64,000 bases of DNA. Source: Escherichia coli (lineage in GTDB: Bacteria > Pseudomonadota > Gammaproteobacteria > Enterobacterales > Enterobacteriaceae). Below, piece after piece: positions 58,833-59,666 of this stretch; the first letter of the stretch is position 1, and the number at the start of each line of letters is the position of its first letter. The DNA lies in the NCBI RefSeq assembly GCF_003790525.1, contig NZ_CP033636.1. The stretch is one strand, 5' to 3'. A program made the position numbers and the translations under genes. The notes beneath the pieces are model-generated. The model saw nothing but the letters and a program-made list of their open reading frames with translations, had not been told where the DNA came from and made no database searches.

Positions 58833-59666
58833 CTATTTCAGCACGGCCAGTATTTCTGTTTCCGTTTTCCGTGTATTCGGCTTACTTCCTACGGATCGGT
58901 AAGCGCTGAGTCTGTGTATGACGAATCCACGCTCTTCATAGAGGCCCAAAGTGAATGATGTCAGGCTATTTGATATCGCAACAGCAGCGCCTTTTCTGTG
59001 AGCGTCAACGAGCATATTTGCTAACAGCACGTGGTCGCTTTGGCTGAACGGTTTACCATCGTAACTGACAAAACTAGTTTTGCTTGTTTTGTCATATGGC
59101 GGATCACAGTAAATCTGATCTCCTTCACCGGTTGCGGCCAGAGTCTCCTCAAAACCAGCGGTGATCAGTTCAATACCTGAAAGACGAAATGAAAGGTAGT
59201 CTATTTTATTGAGGTCAAGCTTCAGTTCTGTATGTTTCCCCCACGGCACTGAATAGATTCTTTCTGAGTTATAGCGGCACATACCGTTATAGCCCAGGCG
59301 ATTCAGGGAGTAAAACAAAGCCGCTCTTTGAAGCGATTGACCAGAAATACAGGTTTTGTTGAAACGGTCCCTCATCTCATAGTAGTCCTTTTCGACAAAG
59401 GTTTTATCCGCCAAGTTTTGGACCTGATTTATAAAGTTAGTTTTCTGTCTTTGAATAGTCCTGTATAGGTTGATCAAGTCTGGATTGCTATCTGCAAGCA
59501 ATGCATTTTGTGCAAACATGTTCAGAAAAACGGCACCACCGCCTATAAAGGGTTCTACCCACCGGCAACTATGATCGTGTGGGTAGTGATGGCTGATGAA
59601 AGGCATCAGTTTCGTTTTTCCACCAGCCCATTTGATTATCGGCATGTGTCTGAGATGTCGAGTCAA
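58833..59666 (-). CDS. dam: Dam-like DNA N6-adenine methyltransferase (orphan; no adjacent restriction gene recognised)
   Basis: ORF track 277 aa; KWAGGK, FIGGGAV (AdoMet binding) and DPPY catalytic motif; true start possibly the second Met (59645). Confidence 0.8.
   Translation of the reverse strand: MTRHLRHMPIIKWAGGKTKLMPFISHHYPHDHSCRWVEPFIGGGAVFLNMFAQNALLADSNPDLINLYRTIQRQKTNFINQVQNLADKTFVEKDYYEMRDRFNKTCISGQSLQRAALFYSLNRLGYNGMCRYNSERIYSVPWGKHTELKLDLNKIDYLSFRLSGIELITAGFEETLAATGEGDQIYCDPPYDKTSKTSFVSYDGKPFSQSDHVLLANMLVDAHRKGAAVAISNSLTSFTLGLYEERGFVIHRLSAYRSVGSKPNTRKTETEILAVLK

Follow-up and report, generated by a model that had tools for sequence, protein, structure and literature searches.

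A solitary Dam-family methyltransferase of the IncHI plasmid backbone located beside a GATC-rich iteron origin

Introduction

The DNA adenine methyltransferase of Escherichia coli (EcoDam, PDB 2G1P) is a GATC enzyme whose base contacts have been described: the first base pair is recognized by K9, the third is in contact with both L122 and P134, the fourth-position G:C pair is read by R124, and Y119 is intercalated between A and T (PMC4417163). Here we analyze a gene of the same family, dam, in a 64,000-nucleotide stretch of E. coli DNA (contig NZ_CP033636.1 of assembly GCF_003790525.1; hereafter, the window). Coordinates are positions in this 64-kb window unless a plasmid or contig is named. 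The dam product resembles EcoDam in family, domain order, S-adenosylmethionine (AdoMet) motif I, the DPPY motif, and the residues K9, Y119, N120, R124, and P134, but it forms part of a separate clade, found on IncHI-type megaplasmids only, and is not the housekeeping ortholog. The same gene is known as R0041 of R27 and WP_001225593 of pHCM1 (IncHI1, 70% identity) and as AKG90296 of pHXY0908 (IncHI2, 100% identity), with differing choices of the start codon.

Solitary Dam enzymes of phages and plasmids (PHROG 56 and 116; pKAZ3, R1, and pCT) are likewise orphan, mobile, and found in dam+ enterobacteria. They are 41% or less identical to the IncHI enzyme, and many are encoded in leading regions or early phage regions, whereas the IncHI dam lies beside a replication origin and far from the inferred origin of transfer (oriT). 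Another group, the methyltransferases of the M.EcoGIX and M.BceJIV type, consists of ParB-methyltransferase fusions that have relaxed specificity and act on entering single-stranded DNA. These single-strand-specific enzymes are, like the IncHI one, orphan plasmid N6-methyladenine (m6A) methyltransferases associated with ParB-like domains or genes (cited in PMC11602122). In contrast to such fusions, the IncHI dam encodes a canonical stand-alone Dam; by analogy, the nearest counterpart of the M.EcoGIX and M.BceJIV type at this locus would be, if anything, a ParB-like gene paired with a DUF4942 methylase.

An iteron origin with clustered GATC sites by the initiator gene, as found here, is also a feature of P1 oriR, ColV-K30 REPI, and oriII/RctB of Vibrio cholerae. 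Origin methylation is essential for replication of P1 and ColV-K30, and RctB binds iterons only when their GATC is methylated (PMC2865523). The GATC sites of oriII are inside the iterons, whereas those of IncHI1 and IncHI2 are beside them. The convergent neighbor of dam is predicted from a structural model to share a winged-helix Rep/RctB-like fold with RctB.

The IncHI dam is an old, maintained, and already annotated backbone gene whose identity was known beforehand. To the annotated gene we add a GATC cluster at the origin, a Rep-like neighbor, the distance to oriT, and a sharper hypothesis: we lean toward the view that dam gives the plasmid its own GATC methylation, serving its origin and methylation-reading sites.

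Results

An intact Dam-family gene with predicted GATC specificity

An initial annotation, made from the sequence alone, had proposed an orphan Dam-like adenine methyltransferase at 58833–59666. The open reading frame (ORF) exists on the minus strand, is intact, and has 277 codons. Its main features and the adjoining spacer are as follows.

58833–59666, minus strand: dam, N6-adenine DNA methyltransferase of the Dam family (D12 class), 277 codons counted from TTG; PF02086, TIGR00571
59094–59105, minus strand: codons of the catalytic motif IV DPPY (amino acids 188–191), aligned to EcoDam D181–Y184 and invariant in the clade alignment
59667–60014, no strand: AT-rich divergent spacer between dam and a ParB-like gene, presumed site of both promoters

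All three motifs quoted in the annotation are present (KWAGGK at amino acids 12–17, FIGGGAV at 40–46, and DPPY at 188–191), and the Dam-like adenine methyltransferase identity is borne out by two family profiles that match over their full length, far past chance: Pfam PF02086, MethyltransfD12 (E = 1.1e-48; 166.6 bits versus a cut-off of 22; profile positions 1–252 of 253) and NCBIfam TIGR00571, "Dam family site-specific DNA-(adenine-N6)-methyltransferase" (E = 1.5e-67; 228.1 bits versus a cut-off of 114.85; profile positions 2–266 of 267). The motif order is that of the alpha class, with EPFIGGGAV (AdoMet motif I) at amino acids 38–46 and DPPY following the target-recognition region, and the catalytic residues are invariant across the clade alignment. 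The closest solved structures are those of EcoDam (E about 1e-39) and DpnM (1.6e-36), both GATC enzymes; T4 Dam and a CamA-type enzyme match far more weakly. The score against the housekeeping equivalog NF008152 was 169.3 bits versus a cut-off of 441, and a global alignment with EcoDam runs end to end at 33% identity; together, these values rule out the housekeeping Dam of Enterobacteria.

In the same alignment, EcoDam residues K9, Y119, N120, L122, R124, and P134 correspond to K12, Y126, N127, M129, R131, and P141 of the plasmid enzyme, so that five of the six are identical and the sixth, L122, is conservatively replaced by Met; R137 and Y138 of EcoDam are replaced by Lys and His. When twelve clade members were aligned with EcoDam, N120, G121, C123, R124, Y125, and the YCDPPY block were invariant. 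Variation within the clade affects position 119 (Tyr or Phe), K9 (Arg in a single member), and, in a few members, P134. Since the base-contacting residues of EcoDam are conserved, we infer on good grounds that the plasmid Dam would produce m6A at GATC. Indirect support comes from the single-molecule real-time (SMRT) methylome of Salmonella Senftenberg ATCC 43845, a strain with a dam-bearing, R478-like IncHI2 plasmid: its motifs are GATC, CAGAG, ATGCAT, and three of Type I, all attributed to genes other than dam, with the remark that GATC "cannot be assigned unambiguously" (PMC5347186). No orphan m6A motif that needs a new specificity remains in that strain, which backs the GATC prediction.

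The start of dam is ambiguous. The long ORF begins with TTG at 59666, while the NCBI choice is an internal ATG at 59645 (270 amino acids). The codon at 59666 is TTG here, as it is in the majority of IncHI2 plasmids, but pHXY0908 has ATG, and the annotated start of the IncHI1 ortholog is also a non-ATG codon. The His that precedes Met-59645 is kept in every member of the clade alignment that reaches upstream, and a weak AGG is found 10 nt upstream of the TTG, with no Shine-Dalgarno-like sequence ahead of the ATG at 59645. Because of the conserved His, the ATG in pHXY0908, and the AGG upstream of the TTG, the longer, 277-codon ORF is probably the right one; its weak TTG start would fit an enzyme made at a low level. 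The upstream spacer has a GC content of 0.36 around 59800–60099. A promoter scan of this spacer revealed one sigma-70-like match for the plus-strand gene and none for dam, and a scan for repeats and GATC positions found no GATC and only short A/T-rich repeats.

dam is a conserved gene of the IncHI backbone

The region 57900–61300 is 100% identical to hundreds of plasmids of 150–400 kb from E. coli, Salmonella, Enterobacter, and Klebsiella in PLSDB. A representative, pHXY0908 (KM877269), is typed as IncHI2A/MOBH/MPF_F, and its coding sequence AKG90296 is annotated "dam." The window, which also contains Tra2, partition, and trhA-trhC regions, is IncHI2 plasmid backbone. We found dam in 1110 PLSDB records, in 1101 of which (about 99%) it is uninterrupted. 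The IncHI1 plasmids pHCM1 (WP_001225593) and R27 (R0041, "DNA adenine methylase") carry a 70% identical ortholog with the same neighbors.

A search of 5.8 billion proteins delineated a discrete Dam clade, with members at 100%, about 70%, and 64–45% identity, mostly on contigs of 100–240 kb; beyond it, identity falls sharply to 41% or less, the level of generic Dam homologs. Comparison with the IncHI1 ortholog gave a non-synonymous divergence (pN) of 0.19 and a synonymous divergence (pS) of 0.84, which is saturated. As the former is far below the latter, the sequences indicate strong, long-term purifying selection on dam.

The gene order is rep/origin, ParB-like gene, small ORF, zinc-finger gene, winged-helix gene, dam, ParB-like gene, usually a DUF4942 methylase gene, and genes of Ig-like proteins. 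This order is shared by pHXY0908 (IncHI2A), pHCM1 (IncHI1A), and two more distant relatives, L007 and L009 (the latter a metagenome contig carrying Dam P0028, which takes its name from Buttiauxella), and is held down to 45% Dam identity; its conservation in IncHI1 and IncHI2 reference-type plasmids places dam in the IncHI backbone. Within it, dam and its winged-helix neighbor stay paired from IncHI2 to relatives with 45% (Dam) and 22% (neighbor) identity.

The region 57900–61300 is a frequent target of insertion sequences (IS) in natural IncHI2 plasmids; IS1203, IS100, ISSen3, ISEc68, ISApl1, and IS3-family elements were observed. IncHI plasmids hold several solitary methylases besides dam. 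More "putative DNA methyltransferase" genes are located between repHI2 and Tra1 at 16521–18940 of KM877269.1, outside the window, and in R27 a ParB-like gene and a "cytosine methylase" gene (R0153/R0154) form a pair that is induced with conjugation.

The densest GATC cluster of the window lies beside the RepHI2A iterons

The replication region of the window contains the following elements.

54397–55272, minus strand: repHI2A, iteron-type initiator of the Rep3 family with WH1 and WH2 domains (PF01051, PF21205); repA and IncHI2A in replicon typing of pHXY0908
55324–55408, no strand: four tandem iterons of about 21 bp, ATTCAnnnAAATGCyTTT (repeat family D1/D2), directly upstream of repHI2A
55427–55590, no strand: GATC cluster beside the iterons, six sites in 161 bp, a candidate Dam-methylatable unwinding element

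RepHI2A iterons are found on both sides of rep (53675–54260 and 55324–55408) and in both orientations, which is the usual layout of origin iterons and control iterons. The GATC sites of the cluster are at 55427, 55472, 55493, 55503, 55516, and 55587, and four of the six are TTGATCT/GTGATCT repeats within 45 bp. With a window mean of 3.4 GATC per kb, this is the densest cluster of the 64 kb, and it is 3.3 kb from dam. The only other notable cluster in the window, at 36191–36303, was linked to no promoter.

Clustered GATC sites recur at the corresponding positions of relatives. The orthologous IncHI1 spacer (L002, 12224–12312) has diverged in sequence and contains five GATC sites beside iterons, three of them within AGATCAA. 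In L009, the segment 17200–17390 contains six gAGATC repeats with spacings of 10–14 bp, which come after four GTGTCCGT-type repeats and before an A/T-rich tract; judged by its sequence, this segment looks like an origin. The candidate origin region of L007 has three gAGATC repeats beside short iterons. Several of the L007 and L009 repeats fit the oriC 13-mer pattern GATCTnTTnTTTT.

The frequency of GATC in the window was also considered as a sign of restriction pressure. The observed/expected ratio of 0.77 is mild and unremarkable among 4-bp palindromes (CATG, 0.85; GTAC, 0.81), and GATC avoidance was rejected.

No restriction endonuclease is recognizable beside dam

Genes around dam are listed below.

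55749–57735, plus strand: ParB-like paralog (351 amino acids), 66-amino-acid ORF, and zinc-finger protein (238 amino acids), upstream of the winged-helix gene and on the same strand
57991–58824, plus strand: predicted winged-helix, Rep-initiator-like DNA-binding protein, 277 amino acids from a conserved Met; the ORF opens at 57967
60015–61178, plus strand: ParB-like DNA-binding protein, 387 amino acids (HTH_ParB, E = 1.1e-4; phrog_1033, E = 3e-28), in the position of R27 R0042
61426–62958, plus strand: second solitary methyltransferase, with DUF4942 and an NPPF-type N6-methyltransferase domain (PF13708, E = 8.6e-22; weak N6_Mtase; phrog_6263, E = 8e-98)

The initial annotation had described dam as convergent with its neighbors. 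This is true on one side, where dam and the winged-helix gene (57967/57991–58824, plus strand) stand tail to tail with 8 bp separating their stop codons; on the other side, dam and the ParB-like gene at 60015–61178 are divergent, head to head across the 348-bp AT-rich spacer.

No ORF from 54397 to 63799 matched a nuclease family in Pfam, NCBIfam, PADLOC, or PHROGs, and the winged-helix neighbor matched no family of any kind in these four libraries. Its 13 detectable homologs all come from IncHI-like plasmids. A first AlphaFold2 (AF2) model, with a predicted local distance difference test (pLDDT) score of 54, was too poor for use, a Foldseek search against PDB yielded no significant match, and a profile search of PDB gave a chance-level match only. 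When two divergent orthologs recognized from conserved gene order were added, the pLDDT of the model reached 83. The structural resemblances of the neighbor are to TFE-alpha, the MSBI1.176 Rep, RepE, and DnaD, and include no nuclease catalytic fold. The neighbor is thus best described, from its model, as a tandem winged-helix, replication-initiator-like DNA-binding protein with a predicted Rep/RctB-like fold. No sequence homology to RepHI2A was detected by hhalign (probability 0.1%).

The winged-helix, Rep-like model (pLDDT 83) and its lack of a nuclease fold rule against the neighbor as a restriction enzyme. The proposal that no restriction endonuclease is recognizable nearby therefore survives both the scans of the flanking ORFs with four libraries and the structure searches with the neighbor. 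Accordingly, dam does not qualify as part of a Type II restriction-modification (R-M) system, no cognate endonuclease being recognizable beside it. It stands as a solitary gene with no recognizable endonuclease partner, a wholly novel nuclease being a formal possibility.

Other features of the neighborhood were observed. The ParB-like paralogs at 55749–56804 and 60015–61178, which bracket the dam module, are 30% identical over 174 amino acids; neither is the main ParB of the plasmid, which is encoded at 37546–38550. Compared with KM877269, the DUF4942/NPPF gene has a 1-bp deletion at 62946 that shortens a G5 run to G4 (CCGGGGGATC in pHXY0908, CCGGGGATC here), and the protein stops at residue 510, just past NPPF, versus 563 amino acids (end near 63116) in pHXY0908. 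This frameshift may reflect true inactivation of the gene or a sequencing error in the homopolymer. L007, the most distant relative, has an extra 244-amino-acid gene (11138–11872, minus strand) between dam and the winged-helix gene; its product contains a GLGLG stretch that by eye resembles an AdoMet-binding motif and has no Pfam match.

Elsewhere in the window, five consecutive ORFs of 292–320 amino acids on the minus strand (1977–6983), hypothetical in pHXY0908, look like a candidate paralog array. A 2.6-kb array at 40180–42769, with about 10.6 copies of a 249-bp tandem repeat at 70% matches, occupies the greater part of the space, free of ORFs, from parA (38547–39800) to trhC (43637–46318); this stretch is unannotated in pHXY0908.

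Expression of the R27 ortholog and position relative to the inferred oriT

Microarray data are available for R27, in which R0041 reached 80 and 144 units at 25°C and 37°C, the authors' threshold for expression being 100 units (PMC7366339). In the htdA-derepressed plasmid, R0041 was upregulated 7.8-fold at 25°C and the winged-helix counterpart 18.6-fold, while R0042 is among the highest-expressed genes and is conjugation induced (PMC7366339). Because loss of the transfer repressor HtdA derepresses 170 of the 205 R27 genes (PMC7366339), the co-induction of dam with the transfer regulon is unspecific.

In the Tra1 region of pHXY0908, the relaxosome operon (traH, traI, traG, and traJ) on one side and the divergent trhR/trhY on the other flank a spacer at about 53.5–54.1 kb. 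From gene order and earlier work on R27, we take oriT to be in this traH/trhR spacer. The pHXY0908 dam, at 238 kb of 249 kb, is 64 kb from the inferred oriT one way and 184 kb the other way. Being at least 64 kb away, dam is outside the early-entering leading region and was rejected as a leading-region anti-restriction gene in the sense of Samuel et al. (2024).

Discussion

Our preferred explanation, to which we would give slightly better than even chances, is that the IncHI dam makes its plasmid self-sufficient in GATC methylation. The enzyme would be active as a GATC m6A methylase and be kept at a low level, as suggested by the weak TTG start and the barely expressed R27 ortholog; its level would rise with the transfer regulon. 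GATC methylation supplied by the plasmid could then make methylation-reading plasmid functions independent of the host Dam level. The foremost target would be the adjacent iteron origin, with an AT-rich flank in which AGATC repeats are clustered as they are in oriC, P1 oriR, and Vibrio oriII. Reliance on the host enzyme would be most consequential following transfer, or when about 800 further sites are brought in by a plasmid of 250 kb.

A number of points weigh against this explanation. The cluster is a single one in 64 kb and has modest statistical weight (a rough Poisson estimate is about 0.01–0.05 after scanning). Origins rich in GATC are frequent among enterobacterial plasmids lacking a dam gene, and for this reason the proximity of dam and origin may be a coincidence. 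The recorded hosts are enterobacteria, which are taken as dam+, and the function of a plasmid Dam looks redundant in them. Natural broken copies exist, such as that in pEC6563-MCR (E. coli), where an IS3-family element splits dam. The expression data stem from the 70% identical ortholog of R27 and not from IncHI2, and full-text searches of the accessible literature found annotations of the IncHI dam and no functional study. Finally, L007 and L009 have an unannotated gene for a protein of 543–548 amino acids in place of Rep3. The 543-amino-acid product of L009 (14212–15843, minus strand), for which neither Pfam nor PDB gave a sequence match, is a possible unclassified initiator; as Rep3 is absent from these two relatives, the module is tied to the replication region and not to RepHI2A itself.

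A further step would be to regard dam and its convergent winged-helix Rep/RctB-like neighbor as one methylation-coupled control module, in which plasmid Dam would write GATC methylation on the AGATC repeats of the origin, and the winged-helix protein or Rep would read it, thereby timing or licensing replication after transfer. If true, the module would be a self-contained plasmid version of the Dam-RctB logic of Vibrio chromosome 2, but we regard this extension as improbable.

The initial annotation had offered self-methylation protection or epigenetic control of plasmid genes as the role of the enzyme. Protection would mean that the plasmid methylates its own GATC sites against MboI-, DpnII-, or Sau3AI-type systems of recipients. 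Orphan methyltransferases rank with the commonest families of large conjugative plasmids and are prominent in leading regions, and protection against restriction by such methylases has been proposed and sometimes shown (PMC11541004, PMC11602122). The best PADLOC models for the plasmid Dam are both Type II and orphan methyltransferases. However, dam is outside the leading region, at 64 or 184 kb from the inferred oriT, and the recorded donors are enterobacteria, taken as dam+, from which the transferred strand arrives already methylated. GATC is not specially depleted either, the R27 ortholog is almost silent in the wild-type plasmid under mating-permissive conditions, and deletion of the pKAZ3 dam produced no protection phenotype against 10 R-M systems (PMC11602122). 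Self-protection is thus not supported by position or composition, and we consider anti-restriction unlikely, although the best of the alternatives. On the sequence evidence, epigenetic control suits the data better because of the GATC-repeat cluster in the neighboring replication origin, and self-protection suits them worse because of the distance from the inferred oriT, the dam+ hosts, and the absence of special GATC avoidance. A different form of epigenetic control, in which promoter GATC sites would regulate plasmid genes such as the thermosensitive transfer regulon and not replication, seems to us rather doubtful. R27 genes R0037–R0042 rise 3- to 19-fold upon loss of HtdA at 25°C, the module is flanked by the trhA-trhC mating-pair operon and by genes of Ig-like proteins from a conjugation-tied class, and methylation regulates transfer in other conjugative plasmids (PMC11602122, Discussion). 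Yet the derepression extends to 170 of 205 R27 genes, the spacer upstream of dam is devoid of GATC, and the sole notable cluster outside the origin was linked to no promoter.

Alternatively, dam could be a redundant passenger, functional or decaying, with no selected role in dam+ hosts. The very low expression of the R27 ortholog, the weak start codon and Shine-Dalgarno sequence, and the persistence of IS-disrupted copies in nature, with the flanking 3.4 kb a frequent IS target, would all be expected of such a gene, but dam is intact in 99% of 1110 plasmids, its non-synonymous divergence is far under the saturated synonymous one, its catalytic residues are invariant, and the gene and its position are kept to 45% identity in deeply diverged plasmids. 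We therefore give this explanation little credence. Least probable of all, and in our view very improbable, is a cryptic Type II R-M or addiction pair in which the convergent 277-amino-acid gene would encode an unrecognized GATC endonuclease. Genes placed tail to tail, here with an 8-bp gap, are typical of many Type II systems, dam and its neighbor are co-conserved throughout the clade, and the neighbor has no family assignment while endonucleases are notoriously diverse; the winged-helix model described above argues in the opposite direction.

IncHI2 and IncHI1 plasmids are major carriers of mcr-1, of extended-spectrum beta-lactamase (ESBL) genes, and of multidrug resistance in typhoid, and genes of their backbone could serve as targets or markers. 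Should the plasmid Dam be needed for firing of the RepHI origin or for establishment after transfer, this would explain why 99% of the plasmids retain a seemingly redundant enzyme and may bear on the host range of IncHI plasmids.

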